Source of the DNA: a virus
Lineage: Duplodnaviria; Heunggongvirae; Uroviricota; Caudoviricetes
DNA: 64,000 bases
Virus record (IMG/VR): IMGVR_UViG_3300037418_003103
Reading direction: 5' to 3' (one strand)
Position 1 is the stretch's first letter. Each line of letters begins with the position of its first letter. The position numbers and the translations under genes were made by a program. Below, one piece after another: positions 11,554 to 19,183 of this stretch. Under the pieces are notes generated by a model. The model was not told the DNA's origin and ran no database searches. It worked only from the letters and a program-made list of their open reading frames with translations.

Positions 11554-11590
11554 TGGTGTGAGGTGGTCTCGAACCACCGACGACTGGATT
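11554..11590 (-). pseudogene. 3' half of an interrupted tRNA (Phe-like)
   Basis: AA TCCAG TCGTC GGTGG TTCGAGA CCACC TCACACC A: intact T arm and acceptor 3' strand. Confidence 0.75.
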
Positions 11591-12195
11591 TATTTCCTTG
11601 CCTGTTTAGAACAAAAAGTGTCAGTTTGACTATGACAATTAGGGCATAGTATTCTTAAATTACTTACTCTATTATCTGCCCTATCACCATTTATATGGTC
11701 TAATTGTAATACTAACGGTTTACCGTTCCAATTCGGTTCCTGTTGGCATTCATAACACTTATTTTCTAAAAATCCTTCCTCTAGGGCTCTTTTCTTAACT
11801 GTTTTAGTATTATTAGTTTTTGACGGAAAACTAAAAATATCATCTAATGTTAACCTCTTTTGGAAACCATTCTTGGTGCTACTAATACCAAAATCAAATT
11901 TAAGTTCACTCAAATTGATCTCGTATAAGCTAGCATATTTTTCAAGAGTCTGAAAATTACCTGATCTTATTTTAAGACCTAATTTCCTAAGTACCTCACT
12001 CTTTGAGTGACTGTTTTTAACAGCAATAACCAATAGTTGCTTCGTCCAATTAACAGTTTTTTTATACCCAATAGTTTTCAGCTCAAACTTCTTCAAGTAA
12101 TAGCGAACTGTTGAGGGCGATACGCCGAATTCTTTAGCTATTTCTCTTATTGATAGCTTTAGAGATACTAACTTAATTAATTTTTCTTTGTCCAC
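11590..12195 (-). CDS. HNH homing endonuclease with N-terminal HTH, inserted in a tRNA anticodon loop
   Basis: C..C, LQLDHINGD..DN..SNLRILCPNCH. Confidence 0.9.
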   Translation of the reverse strand: MDKEKLIKLVSLKLSIREIAKEFGVSPSTVRYYLKKFELKTIGYKKTVNWTKQLLVIAVKNSHSKSEVLRKLGLKIRSGNFQTLEKYASLYEINLSELKFDFGISSTKNGFQKRLTLDDIFSFPSKTNNTKTVKKRALEEGFLENKCYECQQEPNWNGKPLVLQLDHINGDRADNRVSNLRILCPNCHSQTDTFCSKQARK

Positions 12196-12255
12196 CTATA
12201 TAAATAGGCGGACACGCCATAATTATAACAAATTCCTATAAAGTATTAGAAAATA

Positions 12256-12288
12256 AATCCTTTACTATACCAACTGAGTTATCTATTC
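12256..12288 (-). pseudogene. degenerate 5' half of the interrupted tRNA
   Basis: GAATAGA TA ACTC AGTTGGTA TAGT A AAGGA TT; D-loop intact, acceptor strand no longer complementary. Confidence 0.55.
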
Positions 12289-12507
12289 TTTTTGGTTATC
12301 ATCTTCTTTATACTTAGTGTTTAAATAATGTAGATAGCCAATTTCTTCAGAAGTTAATTCACCAATAAAAAAACTATCTTTAAATTTTTCAGTATTAAAT
12401 ACGTGATATCTCACATTTTTATTCGAAAAGTATTCAACTTCAACAAGTTTGCCTAATTCAATTAATTCGTCTATAAAATATTCATACTGTTCTAAAGCTG
12501 TCATCAT
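12283..12507 (-). CDS. hypothetical protein
   Basis: Start moved to ATG 12507 because the longer ORF overlaps tRNA-Cys. Confidence 0.6.
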   Translation of the reverse strand: MMTALEQYEYFIDELIELGKLVEVEYFSNKNVRYHVFNTEKFKDSFFIGELTSEEIGYLHYLNTKYKEDDNQKE

Positions 12508-12525
12508 AATTTTAATTTTTATTTG

Positions 12526-12596
12526 AATTACATGAGAGATTCGAACTCCCGTGGTGTGGGTTGCAACCACACGCCTAACCACTCGGCCAATGTAAT
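12526..12596 (-). tRNA. tRNA-Cys(GCA)
   Basis: Full cloverleaf ATTACAT/ATGTAAT, U73. Confidence 0.9.
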
Positions 12597-12597
12597 A

Positions 12598-12807
12598 TTA
12601 AGCTTCTTTTATCATTCCAAGGATTTCTCTTGGAGATACAAGAGTACACTTCTCTTGTATCTCCTTTATTCTTCTCTTGGGAATATCGTAGTGATTCTTG
12701 TGAAACCAGCATTTTTTAATCCCAAGCAACTCACCCATTAAATGCAGGTTCTCTATTGAATACGGTATGCATATCAGATGTCTCTGTTTATCACAGAAGT
12801 ACTTCAT
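12598..12807 (-). CDS. DUF4031-like small protein
   Basis: WFH..HYDI; ATGA overlap with upstream stop. Confidence 0.55.
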   Translation of the reverse strand: MKYFCDKQRHLICIPYSIENLHLMGELLGIKKCWFHKNHYDIPKRRIKEIQEKCTLVSPREILGMIKEA

Positions 12808-13013
12808 TTCCATTGCTTCTTTCTGTTGTACTTCCATGTTCTATACTCCCCGTATTTCCATTTTAGAATCTCTTTATTTTTTCTTCTACCTCTTGAACGA
12901 TGGTATATAATACCTTCATCCCAGTAGGGTTCAGACATCCTATCATTGGTTACAATCTTGTATTCTTTCCTACAAGTTGTCTTTTGGCTCACTGAGCCTT
13001 TAAATGGTTTCAT
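12804..13013 (-). CDS. small basic protein, WKxNRKxQWK family (copy 1)
   Basis: C-terminal TWKYNRKKQWK. Confidence 0.7.
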   Translation of the reverse strand: MKPFKGSVSQKTTCRKEYKIVTNDRMSEPYWDEGIIYHRSRGRRKNKEILKWKYGEYRTWKYNRKKQWK

Positions 13014-13030
13014 CAATTAGATTTTTATAT

Positions 13031-13054
13031 CTAATGTTCTGTTACTCTTTTCAT
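13031..13054 (-). promoter_or_regulatory. uORF MKRVTEH* (TAG) with stop in hairpin 13016-13035
   Basis: ATG AAA AGA GTA ACA GAA CAT TAG; 7-bp stem, 6-nt loop; 17 nt to next ATG. Confidence 0.65.
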
Positions 13055-13100
13055 ATTATTTTTTTTTAACCAACAGTATTTAGTTGGCCAATTTTTAATT

Positions 13101-13451
13101 TTATACTATTCCAAATATTAGTAATTTTGCGGGCATTGCAGCAAAATAATCTGCATCATCCATTTTTGATACTGGCACTTCAAATCTTACTATTTCTGCA
13201 TTTATTTCTCCACAATTGATTAAAGTTTGATAATAGGCTACCCCTTTTCTTATCATTGTCAAAGTAGCTTGTGGGTTTTGCTTATAAAGAATTTTCTTTA
13301 TTTCATTTTTTTTGTCAATCTCTTTTTGAATCTTCCAATCATCGAAACCTGGAGGTGGTGGTACAAATCCGCGCATGTTATTTTTAATTTGTTTTTTACT
13401 TTTTTCAGACTGTTCCTCTGTTAAATTAGGAACTAATTCATTTGCTTCCAT
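13101..13451 (-). CDS. hypothetical protein
   Basis: 116-aa ORF. Confidence 0.65.
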   Translation of the reverse strand: MEANELVPNLTEEQSEKSKKQIKNNMRGFVPPPPGFDDWKIQKEIDKKNEIKKILYKQNPQATLTMIRKGVAYYQTLINCGEINAEIVRFEVPVSKMDDADYFAAMPAKLLIFGIV

Positions 13452-13621
13452 TGTGTTTTTCTATTTAATTTCCAATTGATTTTGTGCCTATTATATCTGC
13501 GATATCTATTACAGCCTCTATGAGGTCTACATCTATCACAACCTAATCTATTTCTCAACCAAATTATTCTAAAGGTTCTTGAATCTGTTACTTTTTCTAT
13601 TTCTTTTGTTTTGTATGACAT
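13433..13621 (-). CDS. small basic protein, WKxNRKxQWK family (copy 2, with CxxCxxHxxC)
   Basis: CDRCRPHRGCN; NWKLNRKTQWK. Confidence 0.7.
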   Translation of the reverse strand: MSYKTKEIEKVTDSRTFRIIWLRNRLGCDRCRPHRGCNRYRRYNRHKINWKLNRKTQWKQMN

Positions 13622-13638
13622 TCTGAATTGTTTTTAAT

Positions 13639-13665
13639 TCAGAAGAAGTCGTATTGTTTTTTCAT
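13639..13665 (-). promoter_or_regulatory. uORF MKKQYDFF* (TGA) with stop in hairpin 13621-13644
   Basis: Perfect 9-bp stem TTCTGAATT/AATTCAGAA, 6-nt loop; 17 nt to next ATG. Confidence 0.65.
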
Positions 13666-13684
13666 TTAATTTATATTTTACTTG

Positions 13685-13755
13685 TAGCACCACTAAGATT
13701 CGAACTTAGTCGTCGAAAATCAAAATTTCGCATGCTGCCGTTACATCATGGTGCA
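13685..13755 (-). tRNA. tRNA-Gln(TTG)
   Basis: Cloverleaf with U1-U72 mismatch; loop TT TTG AT. Confidence 0.9.
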
Positions 13756-14239
13756 ATTTTACTCCAAATTCTATTTTCCAGGTCCTTATAAAAGGGTTCA
13801 GGGATCTTTATTCCTCTTGACTCAAAATCCTCTACAATTTCCTGCTTCCTAAAAGTACCTTCAACTACACCATCACTCCAAAGGTTGACATGCAACCCCC
13901 AACTCTTCTTAGCTGTTATTACAGCCCTGGTTATGTTCGGATGGCGGGTAATAACCTCAAATATATCATTACTCTTAAATTCTCCATTATCAAATCTCTT
14001 AAAGGCTTCCTTTCCTGAGAATGAACCAGTTCCTTGTTTGAATCTGTAGTCCAGATTCAGATCACATCCACAAAAGATAAGTAACCCACTTCTATATGAC
14101 TTCAGAAAGAATGAGAACATTTCATTAAAGTTTTCTGAATACTTTCTTATCTTTCTATCTTTTCTTGAACCAATCAGTTTTTTTCTTTCTTCTCTATCCT
14201 GATTGGTTACATTGCGTCCAGCCGTTTCATAATGCTCAT
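13746..14239 (-). CDS. hypothetical protein, probably frameshifted near its start
   Basis: Frame of 13746..14120 stays open to ~14244; nearest ATG (14239) is 1 nt out of frame. Confidence 0.5.
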
Positions 14240-14253
14240 AATTTTAATTTGTC

Positions 14254-14514
14254 TTAGGGTATTATTCCAAGTGATTTTAATTCTTTTTCAATACCTCTTC
14301 CCTCCTTATTGGAGGCGGTACAAAAGCACTGTACCGCCTCAGCTACTGCGACCTCTACATCATCGTCATAAGCCGCAATTGTATTCAGTTTGAACAATGG
14401 TATGTCAACGTCCAAGTAACCCATTCTTTGAGTTGTAATTACTGGCGTTAGGACACTATAGCTCCTTCCAGGAAGATCCATTGTTATATTCATTACTTTA
14501 TTATCATTCTCCAT
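14254..14514 (-). CDS. hypothetical protein, HicB N-terminal-like
   Basis: IP...T.A.D..VE.AV.EAV pattern. Confidence 0.45.
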   Translation of the reverse strand: MENDNKVMNITMDLPGRSYSVLTPVITTQRMGYLDVDIPLFKLNTIAAYDDDVEVAVAEAVQCFCTASNKEGRGIEKELKSLGIIP

Positions 14515-14532
14515 ATTAATAATGTTTCATAA

Positions 14533-14774
14533 TAAATATTAGCAAACGGTGGCAGAGGATAGGCGTGCACTAACGCCTCGTTTTACGTCAAACTTTGCCT
14601 TGCTCAGGCTTGTGGATTCGAACCACAGTCTCCACCGCATATATAGGTGGCATCCTAACCGCTAGACCAAACCTGAATTTAAGATCTGACTAAAGCTTAG
14701 ACGCACACGTGGCTATGGTGGCTCTCCTTCGGCTGATTCAGCAAATTTTTGCTGACACCGTTTATTAATATTTA
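14533..14774 (-). ncRNA. putative ~240-nt structured RNA enclosing a tRNA-like domain
   Basis: 23-nt terminal arms 14752-14774 and 14533-14555 pair at 21/23 positions; internal helices. Confidence 0.6.
14603..14676 (-). tRNA. Glu/Asp-type tRNA body with 9-nt anticodon loop TATATATGC
   Basis: All four stems intact; anticodon not assignable. Confidence 0.7.
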
Positions 14775-14781
14775 AAGAACT

Positions 14782-14858
14782 TGGCGGTTTGGACGGGACT
14801 CGAACCCGTGACCTCCGCCGTGACAGGGCGGCATTCTAACCAACTGAACTACCAAACC
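14782..14858 (-). tRNA. tRNA-Asp(GTC)
   Basis: Canonical cloverleaf, G73, encoded CCA. Confidence 0.95.
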
Positions 14859-14903
14859 TTTTAATCGTTTTTAAAACACGCAGAACGATTCAAAACTGAC
14901 CTG

Positions 14904-14976
14904 AGTTCCCTGCTGGACTTGAACCAGCGACCAATCCCTATTACAGGACTGCTCTAACCAACTGAGCTAAGGGAGC
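14904..14976 (-). tRNA. atypical/pseudo tRNA with abnormal anticodon arm
   Basis: D and T arms canonical; GTCCT GTAATA GGGAT gives a 6-nt (or 8-nt) loop; C2-A71 mismatch. Confidence 0.6.
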
Positions 14977-14982
14977 GTTTTG

Positions 14983-15055
14983 TAGCACGAACGGGAATCG
15001 AACCCGTGACTTCTCCGTGAAAGGGAGACGTCTTAAACCCCTTGACCATCGCGCC
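14983..15055 (-). tRNA. tRNA-Glu(TTC)
   Basis: Canonical cloverleaf. Confidence 0.95.
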
Positions 15056-15067
15056 ATTAATATTTAG

Positions 15068-15141
15068 TAGTCCATGAAGGACTCGAACCCTCAACCTCCT
15101 GATCCGTTATCAGGTGCTCTATCCAGTTGAGCTAATGAACC
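15068..15141 (-). tRNA. tRNA-Arg(ACG) with A33
   Basis: CCTGA TA ACG GA TCAGG; A20 in D loop. Confidence 0.85.
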
Positions 15142-15152
15142 GTTTTTTTTTG

Positions 15153-15224
15153 AGCAGAATATTGGATTCGAACCACACATCCTGATTACAAATCAGGCGC
15201 TCTACCAGCTAAGCTATATTCTGC
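15153..15224 (-). tRNA. tRNA-Thr(TGT), 8/4 fold
   Basis: 8-bp acceptor GCAGAATA/TATTCTGC; T stem G.A + 3 bp; U73. Confidence 0.8.
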
Positions 15225-15231
15225 ATTTGTC

Positions 15232-15249
15232 GGAGACGTGGGGCTCGAA
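15232..15249. repeat. 18-bp direct repeat of 16022-16039 (tRNA-like 3' end)
   Basis: ggagacgtggggctcgaa at both sites, flanking the endonuclease gene. Confidence 0.9.
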
Positions 15250-15284
15250 ACATACTTTTCTTTAATTATTTGGTATTTATTAAT

Positions 15285-15959
15285 ATGAAGCCAAAATACA
15301 CTAATAAAGAATTTGAAGAAGCAACTTCAACCACAGAATTACCTTGCGAATGTTACCAATGTTCAAATACATTTCTTAAAATTAAAAAACATATAACTTT
15401 TGAACTTAAACACAATGTCGGTGAGTGTAAATTTTGCTCACAACAGTGTTTATCTAATTTTAAAAATAAGAAAATTAGTGTTAATTGTTCAAATTGTTCA
15501 AAGACCTTTAAAAAAAACAAACATAGAATGAAATTATCATTAAATCATTTCTGTTCACGCTCATGCTCCGCAACCTATAATAACATTCATAAAACTTACG
15601 GCACTAGAAGGTCAAAATTGGAATGTTGGTTAGAGCAACAACTCACCGCATTATACCCTACCATCCATTTTGATTTCAACAAGAAAACTATTATCAAGTC
15701 TGAGCTAGATATTTACATACCATCATTATCATTAGCATTTGAATTAAACGGTATCTTTCATTACGAACCCATATTCGGCATTAAAAAACTTAACCAAACA
15801 CAGAACAACGATATTTCCAAAAGTAAAGCTTGCTTTGACGCAAAAGTTGACCTTTGTATTATAGATGTTTCATCTCAAAATTATTTCAAAGAACCTTCCA
15901 GTATCAAATTTTTAGATATCATCCGAAAAATTATTGATGACCGCTTGTTAACATCTTAG
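15285..15959 (+). CDS. Zn-finger + PD-(D/E)XK (Vsr/DUF559-like) putative homing endonuclease
   Basis: CxxC and FCS..C repeats; RSKLE, ELDIYIP, AFELNGIFHY. Confidence 0.8.
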   Translation: MKPKYTNKEFEEATSTTELPCECYQCSNTFLKIKKHITFELKHNVGECKFCSQQCLSNFKNKKISVNCSNCSKTFKKNKHRMKLSLNHFCSRSCSATYNNIHKTYGTRRSKLECWLEQQLTALYPTIHFDFNKKTIIKSELDIYIPSLSLAFELNGIFHYEPIFGIKKLNQTQNNDISKSKACFDAKVDLCIIDVSSQNYFKEPSSIKFLDIIRKIIDDRLLTS

Positions 15960-16019
15960 CCGCTATAAAAATAACGTTACCAGCAAACACCTCTTGGCGG
16001 TGGGTTAACTTAGTTTGCC
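15947..16019 (-). ncRNA. HDV-like (theta) self-cleaving ribozyme
   Basis: P1 GGCAAAC/GTTTGCT (G.U at site), P2 GTTAAC/GTTAAC, P3 ACC/GGT, L3 GCCAAGA, P1.1 CC/GG, P4 CGTTAT/ATAGCG, J4/2 GCTAA. Confidence 0.75.
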
Positions 16020-16094
16020 TAGGAGACGTGGGGCTCGAACCCACCTGACCTGATACCCTTCCGACACGGTATAAGCGTGAGGGGATAGACTCCA
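16020..16094 (-). tRNA. D-armless tRNA-like RNA with Ile(TAT) anticodon loop
   Basis: CACG CT TAT AC CGTG; T arm GTGGG TTCGAGC CCCAC; acceptor GGAGTC/GTCTCC; A73. Confidence 0.6.
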
Positions 16095-16105
16095 ATTTTT
16101 AATAG

Positions 16106-16178
16106 AGCGAAGTGTCAGATTCGAACTGCATCCCCTGGTTGGAAGCCAAGTACTTTAAGCCATTAAGCTACACCTCGC
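16106..16178 (-). tRNA. tRNA-Gly(TCC), 8/4 fold
   Basis: 8-bp acceptor GCGAGGTG/CACTTCGC; T stem G.A + 3 bp; U73. Confidence 0.8.
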
Positions 16179-16184
16179 AATTTG

Positions 16185-16258
16185 TGGTCCCTGCTGGATT
16201 CGAACCAGCGGCCCTTGGTTTGTAATACCAATGCTCTAACCAACTGAGCTAAAGGACT
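16185..16258 (-). tRNA. tRNA-Val(TAC)
   Basis: Cloverleaf; A1-C72 mismatch; A32. Confidence 0.9.
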
Positions 16259-16259
16259 A

Positions 16260-16298
16260 TGGAGCCGAGAGGCAGCATCCCTGCCTGTTCAACTCGGC
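16260..16298 (-). ncRNA. CCA-ended tRNA minihelix-like RNA
   Basis: GCCGAG TTGAAC AGGCAG GGATG CTGCCT CTCGGC T CCA. Confidence 0.5.
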
Positions 16299-16315
16299 AT
16301 ATACTCTTTATAATT

Positions 16316-16519
16316 TTATTCAAAATAATCTGTCGCAATAACCAACTCATCTAATTTCTTTTTACTAACCTTCTTTGCTATTATCTTAAGATCATACTCT
16401 TCCCACCTAATTTGTGCTTTACGAATTGCTTCCTCTTCTGATTCGGCAAGAGTATAACAATACATTGGTGTTTTTGCTCCTTTCATTATAGGTATAAATA
16501 CAAAATATAATTCATTCAT
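16316..16519 (-). CDS. hypothetical protein
   Basis: 67-aa ORF, AESEEEA motif. Confidence 0.65.
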   Translation of the reverse strand: MNELYFVFIPIMKGAKTPMYCYTLAESEEEAIRKAQIRWEEYDLKIIAKKVSKKKLDELVIATDYFE

Positions 16520-16534
16520 TTGTTAATTTTTTTG

Positions 16535-16608
16535 TGGAGTAGGCGAGCATCAAACTCGCTACCTCCTGCATGCAAAGCAGGTGCTCTATCCAACTGAGCT
16601 TCTACCCC
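16535..16608 (-). tRNA. tRNA-Ala(TGC)
   Basis: G3.U70, A73. Confidence 0.92.
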
Positions 16609-16626
16609 ATTTAATTCTTTTCTTTG

Positions 16627-16699
16627 TAGCCTTGAATGGATTCGAACCATTATCCTCGGCTTAGAAGGTCGATGCTCTGGTCCATTGAGCTACAAAGCT
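16627..16699 (-). tRNA. tRNA-Arg(TCT)
   Basis: Cloverleaf, one A.C mismatch in anticodon stem. Confidence 0.9.
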
Positions 16700-16737
16700 A
16701 TTGTTGCACGAAAATAGTGTATTTAGCTAAATATACT

Positions 16738-17010
16738 TTATTTAAAGTATATTTTATAATTTTTAATTGGGTTGTCGGTTAATTTGTTAGTACTTTCCAA
16801 ATACCATCCAATATCATACGTTTCGCTATCTATATTACTAATTTCTATTTTCATACCATCCTTTTTCAATTTTTCAATAGTTTCTGCTGAAACAAAACAC
16901 TCAAATAATGTTACATAGTTTAACTTATTTTCTGGGTTATAGGTGGTATTATGTATTAATGTTATAATATCTTCATACGTTTTTTCATGAAACTTTCCCA
17001 ATTCTGTCAT
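16738..17010 (-). CDS. hypothetical protein
   Basis: 90-aa ORF between tRNAs. Confidence 0.65.
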   Translation of the reverse strand: MTELGKFHEKTYEDIITLIHNTTYNPENKLNYVTLFECFVSAETIEKLKKDGMKIEISNIDSETYDIGWYLESTNKLTDNPIKNYKIYFK

Positions 17011-17027
17011 AATTTTTAATTTTTTAG

Positions 17028-17100
17028 CGCGCAGTCAAGGAATCGAACCTTGTCCATGCTAGGTTTTGGAGACCTGCCGCATACCATTATGCTACCACGC
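17028..17100 (-). tRNA. tRNA-Trp(CCA)
   Basis: CT CCA AA loop, G73; bulged anticodon stem. Confidence 0.85.
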
Positions 17101-17103
17101 ATT

Positions 17104-17292
17104 TTATTTTTCGTATTCAAACAACTTAACAAAAATCAGAACCCTCCCTCTTTCTCTTTCAAATCTAAGCTCCGCTTTATCATCAACATCTTTCGCCTTC
17201 TTTAAGTACTTATCGTATATCTGATCAAAGTCCTTATTAAAATCCTTTTCTTTCTCACTCCCTAACTTCCTGTAACGCTCTGTGTTTTCCAT
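17104..17292 (-). CDS. hypothetical protein
   Basis: 62-aa ORF, first gene after the attenuator. Confidence 0.6.
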   Translation of the reverse strand: MENTERYRKLGSEKEKDFNKDFDQIYDKYLKKAKDVDDKAELRFERERGRVLIFVKLFEYEK

Positions 17293-17296
17293 ATTA

Positions 17297-17325
17297 ATAA
17301 AAAACCCCCGATTTTGTCGGGGGCT
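17297..17325 (-). terminator. intrinsic terminator/attenuator ahead of the tRNA array
   Basis: AGCCCCCGA CAAAA TCGGGGGTT TTTT. Confidence 0.85.
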
Positions 17326-17346
17326 ATCTAAGTTACTTTTATATTT

Positions 17347-17445
17347 TTAAAAATATTCAGTATCATACATAACACACCCCAATTCAATGTCTTCGCATTG
17401 TGCCCAATTAAATCGTATCCCTGTTTCTATGACTACTTGTCTCAT
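17347..17445 (-). CDS. putative leader peptide MRQVVIETGIRFNWAQCEDIELGCVMYDTEYF
   Basis: 32-codon ORF between promoter and terminator; codons match array anticodons. Confidence 0.75.
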   Translation of the reverse strand: MRQVVIETGIRFNWAQCEDIELGCVMYDTEYF

Positions 17446-17475
17446 TATTATTATGTTTTAACTTTCTTTGTCATT

Positions 17476-17519
17476 ATAAATATAATGCAAATATACTAAA
17501 AGTAATTATTACAACCAAC
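17476..17519 (-). promoter_or_regulatory. promoter(s) of the tRNA array
   Basis: GTTG(17516-17519)-N20-TATATTTG(17488-17495), plus ATATTTAT at 17476-17483. Confidence 0.7.
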
Positions 17520-17533
17520 TTTTTTATTTTTTT

Positions 17534-18172
17534 TTAAACATCAAGCTGTGAAGTGATGCTTATACTAAAAAGATAGGTATTATTTGTTTCATTAAATCCA
17601 TCTAAATAAGCGTTGATATGGGAAACATATCCGCCTGGATTACCTTCAACTCCATGACTATTGTAATTTAATTCTTTCGCAAACTCTTTAGGATTACCAG
17701 AAATACTACTAGGTATCTGAAGTTTAAATTCCATTGTTGATCCTTCCTCTGACTCAGAAACCTTAAGAGTATTCTTTAAGATATATTTACCATAAGGCTC
17801 TATGGAATGATAAGCATCATCCAAATATTGAGCTGATCGTTTTTCTGAAATGTAAGGAGGTAACTCTGCATCGTCCCATCCAAGCTCAAATGAAGCAACC
17901 TTTATTGCTTCTTGTCTTAACCTCTCAGCACCTTCTTTATCTCCTAGATTAAATTGGGCCTTTCCTTTATCGTACAACTCAATAGCTTTCCTTTCGGCTT
18001 CTTTATTTGAACCATGATCACCATCGGTTGGATCTGTTTCGCTATAAAGACTAGTTTCTAATATATCATCAGGTCTCTTAATTTTATTAAAATTATCTTT
18101 AAAAGATTCTATGATAGCCTTCTGTTTTTGCCTCAATATTAGTTTCTTTTCCTTATTTGTAAGTATTTTCAT
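17534..18172 (-). CDS. hypothetical late protein
   Basis: 212-aa ORF behind ATATTTAT. Confidence 0.7.
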   Translation of the reverse strand: MKILTNKEKKLILRQKQKAIIESFKDNFNKIKRPDDILETSLYSETDPTDGDHGSNKEAERKAIELYDKGKAQFNLGDKEGAERLRQEAIKVASFELGWDDAELPPYISEKRSAQYLDDAYHSIEPYGKYILKNTLKVSESEEGSTMEFKLQIPSSISGNPKEFAKELNYNSHGVEGNPGGYVSHINAYLDGFNETNNTYLFSISITSQLDV

Positions 18173-18233
18173 TTAGAGGTTGTTTTATTATAAATATAAG
18201 CATAAATATAAATGTTAACTTATACAACACTCA

Positions 18234-18407
18234 TTAAATGTCAAGTTTTAGTTGTTTAAATTTAGATTTCTTTTGTTTTTTATTCTCAGCATTAACTATC
18301 TCAGTATACTTAATGCATAATTTGTATATTGCATCATACAGGTCTGTTTTGATTTCTGTATCCCTTAATTCATGCTTTGCAAGTGCTGTAAAATCTTCTG
18401 GTTTCAT
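18234..18407 (-). CDS. hypothetical protein (57 aa, below ORF-track cutoff)
   Basis: MKPEDFTALAKHELRD...; fills gap 5 nt after the methylase stop. Confidence 0.6.
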   Translation of the reverse strand: MKPEDFTALAKHELRDTEIKTDLYDAIYKLCIKYTEIVNAENKKQKKSKFKQLKLDI

Positions 18408-18412
18408 ATACT

Positions 18413-19183
18413 TTATTTTAATTCCTTTGTAAATGGCTCAAGTCCTATTAATTTTCTATTTTCTTCAACTCTGTTAAGACCAACTTCAAAAGAATGCGGA
18501 TCATTCTCCATGCAAATCCAGCCTCTCTTTAAATTATCACAAGCCACTGCGATGGTAAATGAACCAGCGCAATTATCCAAGACAACCTCCCCTTCATTTG
18601 TGTACGTTTTTATAATATATTCACATAACTTAACTGGTTTTTGTGTGGAGTGAAGATTTAATTTTTGTCTATCAGACGGAAATTGAAGGACACTAATTGG
18701 ATATCGTTCAGTTGAATCATAAGTTGTGTAATTACCGTATTCACCATAAATTTCCCCTTGTGGCGTATTCCTCTTATGGTGAGCCGTTGAAACCTTTCTC
18801 TTATGACCATGTGTTTTGATGTAATTATATGTTGGTAAATGCTTATAGAAAACAAGAATGTTCTCATGTGCCTTCATTGGCGCCTTTTTGGCATTTAAAT
18901 GGCCAGTGGGTCGTGTTTTTTGCCAAATCCATTCATACCTAAGCATCTCTAGATTACTGGCTCCAAGAACCTTGTCAAACGGCGTTTGAGCAAAGAGACA
19001 AATAGCCCCATCATCCTTAATTACACGTTTATATTGCTTCCATAATTTTTCTAAGTCTATTATTGAATCCCATTTGCAATGTGTTGTTCCATATGGCAAA
19101 TCAGCGAATATTAAATCAACGCTCTTGTCAGGTATTTTATTCATCTCAATTAAGCAATCTCCGAAATAAGCCTTGTTAATCAT
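18413..19183 (-). CDS. DNA N6-adenine/N4-cytosine methyltransferase (beta class)
   Basis: DLPY, H.TQKP, VLDNCAGS. Confidence 0.9.
   Translation of the reverse strand: MINKAYFGDCLIEMNKIPDKSVDLIFADLPYGTTHCKWDSIIDLEKLWKQYKRVIKDDGAICLFAQTPFDKVLGASNLEMLRYEWIWQKTRPTGHLNAKKAPMKAHENILVFYKHLPTYNYIKTHGHKRKVSTAHHKRNTPQGEIYGEYGNYTTYDSTERYPISVLQFPSDRQKLNLHSTQKPVKLCEYIIKTYTNEGEVVLDNCAGSFTIAVACDNLKRGWICMENDPHSFEVGLNRVEENRKLIGLEPFTKELK

Follow-up and report, generated by a model that had tools for sequence, protein, structure and literature searches.

Which signal tells a phage to transcribe its own tRNA genes? To our knowledge, the regulation of phage tRNA genes is essentially unknown. The window, which is the whole 64-kb stretch of phage DNA that we analysed, carries a tRNA array on its minus strand, and a sequence-only reading had proposed that a leader-peptide attenuator precedes this array and names, codon by codon, the tRNAs encoded behind it. 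The proposal held up in our analysis: the layout, the permutations of leaders against arrays, the frame specificity of the match and a covarying antiterminator all speak for it, and we consider it likely that a ribosome-mediated leader-peptide transcription attenuator gates the phage tRNA operon. The phage probably makes the array tRNAs only when ribosomes read the leader codons slowly.

The locus and its source

The phage is AT-rich (33% GC over the 64-kb window), with nearly every gene on the minus strand. An identical copy of the window was found within a 345-kb contig, and the source samples were rhizosphere/soil metagenomes. The contigs L001 and L002, like the sequencing runs matched to the window, showed no differences from it and offered no variation to compare. 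No close cultured relative was present in INPHARED, either by DNA comparison or by tblastn of the neighbour gene, an SbcC-like protein, a class C unit and orf62. Likewise, searches of IMG/VR with the 212-aa neighbour, orf62 and the exact leader string gave no match.

Read downwards from 17520 on the minus strand, the stop codon of the 212-aa gene is followed by the promoter, the leader ORF, the terminator, orf62, tRNA-Trp and the rest of the array. The minus-strand promoter, the 32-codon ORF and the terminator agreed in sequence and coordinates with what had been described before. The array indeed lies behind the terminator, but the conserved 62-aa ORF between them had been missed. The features are as follows.

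17512-17518, minus strand: TTG element near -33; the promoter as a whole is TTG, 18-20 nt and TATATTTG, a TTG-N18-20-TAnnTTTG match at 17518-17488 of the Bacteroidota sigma-A type
17488-17495, minus strand: -7 box, TATATTTG
17474-17487, minus strand: near-repeat of the -7 box, CA-N-TATATTTATAA, directly after the box and conserved in relatives
17347-17445, minus strand: leader ORF, 32 codons plus TAA, also called by gene callers in the identical contigs
17389-17442, minus strand: putative regulatory codons 2-19, including all ten amino acids of the canonical tRNAs
17369-17382, minus strand: predicted 5' strand of the antiterminator (codons 22-26), pairing with 17327-17317, which includes the terminator 5' arm
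17297-17330, minus strand: intrinsic terminator, stem 17325-17317 / 17311-17303, loop CAAAA, T-run to 17297
17104-17292, minus strand: orf62, a conserved 62-aa ORF with homologues in relatives, the first gene past the terminator
12525-17100, minus strand: tRNA array, Trp-CCA, Arg-TCT, Ala-TGC, Val-TAC, Gly-TCC, Thr-TGT, Arg-ACG, Glu-TTC, Asp-GTC, Gln-TTG, Cys-GCA

Promoter and translation start

The Bacteroidota sigma-A consensus consists of TAnnTTTG at -7 and TTG near -33 (PMC7366714, PMC9723704). Because the -7 box of Flavobacterium spans -12 to -5 (PMC9723704), transcription of the cassette would start near 17483, about 5 nt downstream of the box. The promoter was conserved in L003, L004 and the class C relatives. 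The full TTG...TAnnTTTG motif occurred 17 times in the window against 4.9 expected, 14 of them on the coding strand and often directly 5' of genes; the bare TAnnTTTG box was not enriched (100 versus 97 expected in the window). A sigma-70 promoter scan yielded 28 sites versus 27 expected, its consensus being ill-suited to a Bacteroidota-type host. No second full TTG...TAnnTTTG promoter was found inside the tRNA array; bare TAnnTTTG boxes are present there, and internal promoters within the array are possible. The 23-nt composite of -7 box and near-repeat (TATATTTAT; 17474-17496, minus strand) occurs once in the window, and box plus near-repeat were also seen 5' of ordinary long genes in other phage contigs. 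The near-repeat may act as a second promoter element peculiar to the phage, or it may belong to an initial transcribed region that is conserved.

The leader ORF begins about 38 nt past the predicted transcription start and is predicted to be translated. Its start lacks a Shine-Dalgarno sequence and has A at -3, -6 and -11 to -14, and an A-rich start context is a rule in Bacteroidota (PMC7366714). The Shine-Dalgarno core was likewise absent from all long ORFs of the window (0/43). Given the Bacteroidota-type promoter, the missing Shine-Dalgarno cores and the A-rich leader start context, the host is most likely a member of the Bacteroidota. For one genus of this phylum, Flavobacterium, there are published hints of leader-peptide attenuation (PMC9723704).

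Leader codons and array anticodons

The array comprises 11 canonical tRNAs for ten amino acids, together with non-canonical tRNA-like genes, small ORFs and an HNH gene; ARAGORN found 13 tRNA genes and the Rfam tRNA model 12. Eleven of the 18 codons at positions 2-19 of the leader are exact Watson-Crick partners of the 11 canonical anticodons, compared with a baseline of 19% in long ORFs (binomial 1e-4). The ORF is picked out by its position, and with an 18-codon window that was chosen post hoc, its match was the extreme of the whole sequence: codons 2-19 name nine distinct anticodons, and among the 45,549 open stretches of 18 codons across all six frames of the 64 kb, no other reached nine. 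Furthermore, when the phage's own proteins were divided into 16,772 such windows, none had all ten array amino acids within its 18 residues; a random model gave 1e-4. The leader therefore outdid random 18-codon windows as the single best stretch in 64 kb, and the claim that it enumerates the array was borne out.

Most array tRNAs are represented by just one or two leader codons. The leader codons without a canonical tRNA in the array are ATA (twice), TTT, AAT, ATT, TTG, ATG and TAT, and some finer points of the earlier codon list fared less well. The C-ending codons TGC and GAC are used in the leader, as had been pointed out, but they are weak evidence, since TGC makes up 33% of the Cys codons and GAC 22% of the Asp codons in the phage genes anyway. 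The supposed Ile-TAT-like partner of ATA is not a canonical tRNA, although a CU-UAU-AC loop can be read in a tRNA-like element at 16020-16094 (minus strand), which has an acceptor stem and a T arm and is without a normal D arm. Both ARAGORN and the Rfam tRNA model missed this element. The fit of TTT to a Phe-like tRNA was not upheld: the gene at 14903-14976 (minus strand) is nearest to Val-GAC tRNAs of related phages, and its Phe identity is unsupported. This tRNA scored 46.9 bits with the Rfam model and has a 6-nt anticodon loop without an assignable anticodon.

Other elements of the array were also unusual. An HDV-like ribozyme match (RF02682, 38.9 bits with a gathering score of 44, E 1e-4) at 15947-16019 on the minus strand directly follows the tRNA-like element at 16020-16094. 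ARAGORN called a tRNA with anticodon 'ata' and a 9-nt anticodon loop at 14602-14676 (minus strand), where no Rfam tRNA match was obtained at E <= 0.1; by sequence, its closest counterparts were Asp and Gln tRNAs. HNH/homing-endonuclease-like genes lie inside the array on the opposite strand (15270-15959, plus strand) and at the array end (11590-12195, minus strand), and related arrays also hold such genes between their tRNAs.

At the promoter-proximal side, tRNA-Trp starts four bases past orf62, and the array ends at tRNA-Cys (12525). Homologues of orf62 were found at this place in L003, in L004 and at 17 metagenome loci. The orf62-type protein has 56-62 aa with the motif RY-K/R-KLG and lies between the terminator and tRNA-Trp in its cassette class. 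It matched no Pfam or PHROG family, and its Atlas model was of low confidence. No anti-defence gene was identified adjoining the cassette.

Terminator and antiterminator

The terminator stem has 9 bp with 6 GC pairs (-17.3 kcal/mol, z -4.2), and it was the sole minus-strand terminator-like site in 12000-19000. An antiterminator pairing with its 5' arm had been proposed, and this pairing is exactly the minimum free energy (MFE) structure of the nascent transcript before the 3' arm is made (-17.6 kcal/mol, z -3.7). The leader stop codon lies at the apex of this hairpin. Equivalent hairpins were present in L004 (-21.1 kcal/mol) and L003 (-17.1 kcal/mol), with changed sequences. Across the cassette family described below, the terminator 5' arm was at least 60% paired with ORF codons ~19-28 in the nascent MFE structure in 29/31 units (mean z -2.9). 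In addition, when ORFs and terminators were permuted among 10 terminator types, the own pairing was the stronger, and only 8 of 200,000 permutations reached the observed sum. The duplex score of the antiterminator in the window by itself was no better than that of codon-shuffled controls (z 0.1), so that support for the window antiterminator comes from the whole-hairpin fold and from the family.

Folding of both states, as had been suggested earlier, gave the antiterminator for the nascent transcript and the terminator for the full transcript at equilibrium. With the modelled ribosome positions masked, the terminator stayed at every position, and we rejected equilibrium folding with a masked ribosome as a test of the switch: the terminator never flipped, and the switch would be kinetic. 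Because equilibrium folds always keep the terminator, the putative switching would have to be kinetic, as in classical attenuators. The window folds also contained a hairpin between codons 11-14 and 19-22 and left the G-run unsequestered. A clear anti-antiterminator (1:2) hairpin could not be established, so read-through may be the default for a transcript that is not translated.

A family of leader cassettes before phage tRNA arrays

The closest comparison was provided by the metagenome contig L004, which is syntenic over 10 kb: its promoter and terminator are those of the window, its ORF has 30 codons, its orf62 is 71% identical, and Trp, Arg and Ala tRNAs follow. L003, a more distant metagenome contig, has a 35-codon ORF and an altered terminator. 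The nucleotide sequence of the 3' part of the ORF is conserved in L004, where a 1-nt indel puts it in another frame than in the window. Such nucleotide conservation across a frame shift would be the look expected of an RNA element inside the ORF.

We collected a family with one 19-nt promoter core (box plus near-repeat), which gave 74 IMG/VR loci. In about half of them, tRNA arrays followed 160-450 nt downstream, nearly all by way of a 26-35-codon ORF and a terminator. There were 33 distinct ORFs, and the full layout of promoter, ORF, terminator and tRNAs was found in 31 distinct units from viral and metagenome contigs. The expected recurrence of a leader ORF and a terminator before tRNA arrays in related phages is thereby confirmed. 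The terminator was present in 31/31 units, and the frame was open with an ATG in all of them despite low sequence identity.

Four leader classes recurred. A core such as ILVLCLCVLVL precedes Cys, Val and Leu tRNAs; TYQPKQKPQGG precedes Pro, Gln, Tyr, Thr, Gly and Lys tRNAs; NSINWRRNS precedes Trp, Ser, His, Ile, Met, Asn and Arg tRNAs; and FEFNFDAAEAD precedes Asp, Phe, Glu and Ala tRNAs. Beside these classes, mixed arrays are preceded by mixed leaders, and nearly all tRNA species of the related phages sit behind such leaders.

The window cassette belongs near the third of these classes. Homologues of orf62 were found at 19 metagenome loci, 16 of which have a leader of the Trp/Ser/His/Ile/Met/Asn/Arg type and a terminator upstream, followed by an array of the same type wherever the contig includes it; at the other three (3/19), the available sequence contained no such leader. 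The window shares with this class the promoter, orf62 and the Trp-first order, and differs in its tRNA set. Compared with the Trp/Ser/His class, Ser and His are gone from the window leader, along with nearly all Asn, and Gln, Val, Glu, Thr, Gly, Ala, Cys and Asp have been added. The window cassette is homologous to the Trp/Ser/His class and is retuned to its own tRNA set. Around the Trp codon, Ile, Phe and Asn persist and look as if they were left over from the ancestral core.

Several further features were noted in the relatives. In many related units (L015, L056, L060, L066, L068 and L075), a small conserved 5' UTR hairpin of the GGGG-AAA-CCC type lies just 5' of the leader; it is absent in the window. 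Among the related arrays L026, L035, L037, L005 and L006 there are tRNAs with a CTA anticodon (amber-suppressor type, labelled Pyl by ARAGORN), as well as Cys, Val and Asp tRNAs whose unusual length of 85-90 nt may be due to inserts. At L047:1106, L057 (minus strand) 854 and L064:4155, copies of the promoter precede a CAT-anticodon tRNA without a leader ORF of at least 12 codons. If this tRNA is an initiator, the missing leader would be sensible, as an elongating ribosome cannot sense the initiator.

Leader content follows array content

With six class representatives, the true pairing of leaders and arrays was the best of all 720 permutations. The match was 0.57 in the ORF frame, compared with 0.27 and 0.21 in the other two frames, and the ORF frame was strictly best in 18/19 units, with one tie. 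Matched residues peaked at codons 8-17 (84-95%) and fell to 20-30% at codons 22-25. Leader codons for Leu, Gln, Gly and Arg sample several isoacceptors of the arrays. The covariation of leader content with anticodon content, which the sequence-only reading had made a test of its proposal, was hence found in the permutations, in the frame and in the position along the ORF.

Promoter cores without tRNAs served as a control; ordinary long genes followed them, and no short ORF with a terminator was found there. Among 120 core-bearing loci in bacterial and archaeal genomes, only one had the layout, and it looks like a phage contig mis-binned into an archaeal MAG. No bacterial tRNA operon with the layout was found among the core matches, which fell mostly in Bacteroidota, with chance matches in AT-rich genomes.

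Proposed mechanism

The locus combines four features of an attenuator: a short ORF near the promoter, regulatory codons that match the products, an intrinsic terminator and a suitably placed alternative antiterminator. In the proposed mechanism, the host sigma-A RNA polymerase would start near 17483, and a ribosome would translate the 32-codon leader, whose codons 2-19 sample the codons read by the downstream tRNAs. When decoding is fast, the ribosome would proceed through codons 22-32 to the stop codon and cover the 5' half of the antiterminator (17382-17317). With the antiterminator blocked, the terminator arms would pair and transcription would stop at about 17297. When decoding is slow at any sampled codon, the cognate tRNA being scarce, uncharged or cleaved, the ribosome would lag behind. 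A ribosome lagging in codons 2 to ~17 would allow the antiterminator to form during transcription, and the polymerase would enter orf62 and the tRNA genes. As the phage tRNAs accumulate, decoding would become faster and the operon would shut off, giving a negative feedback on tRNA supply.

We infer the direction of the switch and its physiological trigger from this arrangement. Because the leader tests codons that are read by the tRNAs of its own operon, such a circuit would act as a negative feedback on decoding capacity. The slow-decoding signal could come from a codon-usage mismatch with the host, host shut-off, amino-acid limitation or anticodon nucleases. As there are one or two codons per tRNA, a graded response, in which the dwell times over many codons add up, is at least as likely as an OR gate. 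For the same reason, shortage of a single tRNA may give only weak read-through.

Alternative explanations

The short ORF could also be an independent small-protein gene, served by a promoter and terminator of its own, that resembles the tRNA set by coincidence, with the tRNAs transcribed in some other way. That gene callers call the ORF, that class A leaders resemble hydrophobic membrane peptides and that internal -7 boxes exist within the array would suit such a gene. Its composition, however, follows the tRNA cargo (1/720 permutations), with the effect limited to the ORF frame and to codons 8-17; its 3' part is conserved in nucleotides across the frame shift between the window and L004; and the short ORF and terminator are absent where the same promoter drives other genes. 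We regard a small-protein gene as highly improbable. An element acting solely as RNA, in which the open frame would be incidental, does somewhat better but is still improbable; it could be an insulator, a processed small RNA or a terminator that leaks constitutively. In its favour, the terminator is very stable and dominates the equilibrium folds, and translation of the leader is a prediction from sequence. On the other hand, an ATG frame of 26-35 codons is kept in 31 distinct units at low identity, the signal in the amino acids is specific to one frame, the context of the start codon agrees with the rules for Bacteroidota, and the position of the stop codon at the antiterminator apex makes sense only if a ribosome reads it.

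A different question is what the attenuator was selected for. Depletion of host tRNAs has been connected with phage tRNA arrays, and the same attenuator might serve counter-defence by sensing the tRNA loss caused by anticodon nucleases and inducing replacement tRNAs. The mechanism cannot tell a missing tRNA from a slow one and would respond to nuclease attack, and the leader-array match is compatible with this role. Nothing in the sequence indicates a defence trigger, however, and no anti-defence gene was identified beside the cassette. Moreover, the presence of nearly all tRNA species behind leaders suits a general control of supply, whereas nucleases hit few specific tRNAs. Selection for counter-defence is thus a possibility that we hold to be rather doubtful. 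We are similarly tentative, and inclined to disbelief, about the fuller version in which stalling through nuclease cleavage of any of ~10 tRNA species induces the replacements and the ATA, TTT and AAT leader codons report the non-canonical tRNA-like genes. An attenuator that responds to slow decoding in general remains our preferred reading.

Significance

A leader attenuator before tRNA arrays would be the first known case in which tRNA transcription is set by the decoding speed of the matching codons, and tRNA supply would thereby be under direct feedback. Such control would account for the amino-acid blocks into which related phages sort their tRNAs, for the tying of expression to need (codon-usage mismatch, host shut-off or nuclease attack) and for the way in which cargo and sensor co-evolve. 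The leader could also serve as an annotation tool that predicts the tRNAs of its operon, including non-canonical ones. If the fuller counter-defence version is true, leaders would more broadly be a readable 'table of contents' predicting the decoding identity of odd phage tRNAs. The cassette is compact (~220 nt) and modular, and is suited to reporters.

Comparison with known systems

A full-text literature search turned up no report, for phages or for bacteria, of tRNA genes under leader attenuation, in agreement with the earlier statement that none was known for phages. No Rfam leader family matched in 12000-17700. T-box riboswitches share with the cassette a choice between terminator and antiterminator that reports the state of a specific tRNA. 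They are typical of Firmicutes and need neither a ribosome nor an ORF, since the RNA itself binds the uncharged tRNA by means of its specifier codon and T-box sequence. A T-box riboswitch was rejected as a candidate, with no Rfam T-box match at E <= 0.1 in 12000-17700.

The enterobacterial leader-peptide attenuators include the multivalent ilvGMEDA and ilvBN (Leu, Val, Ile) and thr (Thr, Ile) leaders as well as trpL, hisL, leuL and pheL. They share with the phage cassette a short ORF close to the promoter, regulatory codons that stand for several amino acids, a terminator with an overlapping antiterminator and a decision made by ribosome position. However, they regulate biosynthetic enzymes, whereas the phage cassette would regulate tRNAs. 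Enterobacterial leaders use runs of regulatory codons, whereas the phage leaders sample as many as ten amino acids or more, most of them with one or two codons. Unlike in the enterobacterial attenuators, the phage ORF includes the 5' strand of the antiterminator and has its stop codon at the hairpin apex, and the cassette resides in a Bacteroidota-type setting devoid of Shine-Dalgarno sequences.

The pheST operon of E. coli, in which an attenuator with the pheM leader controls phenylalanyl-tRNA synthetase, comes close in purpose. Both systems place a translation gene under leader-peptide control and loop the decoding of codons back to the supply of the decoding machinery. The pheST attenuator is bacterial, senses one amino acid and controls a synthetase, whereas the phage cassette would control the tRNA genes themselves.
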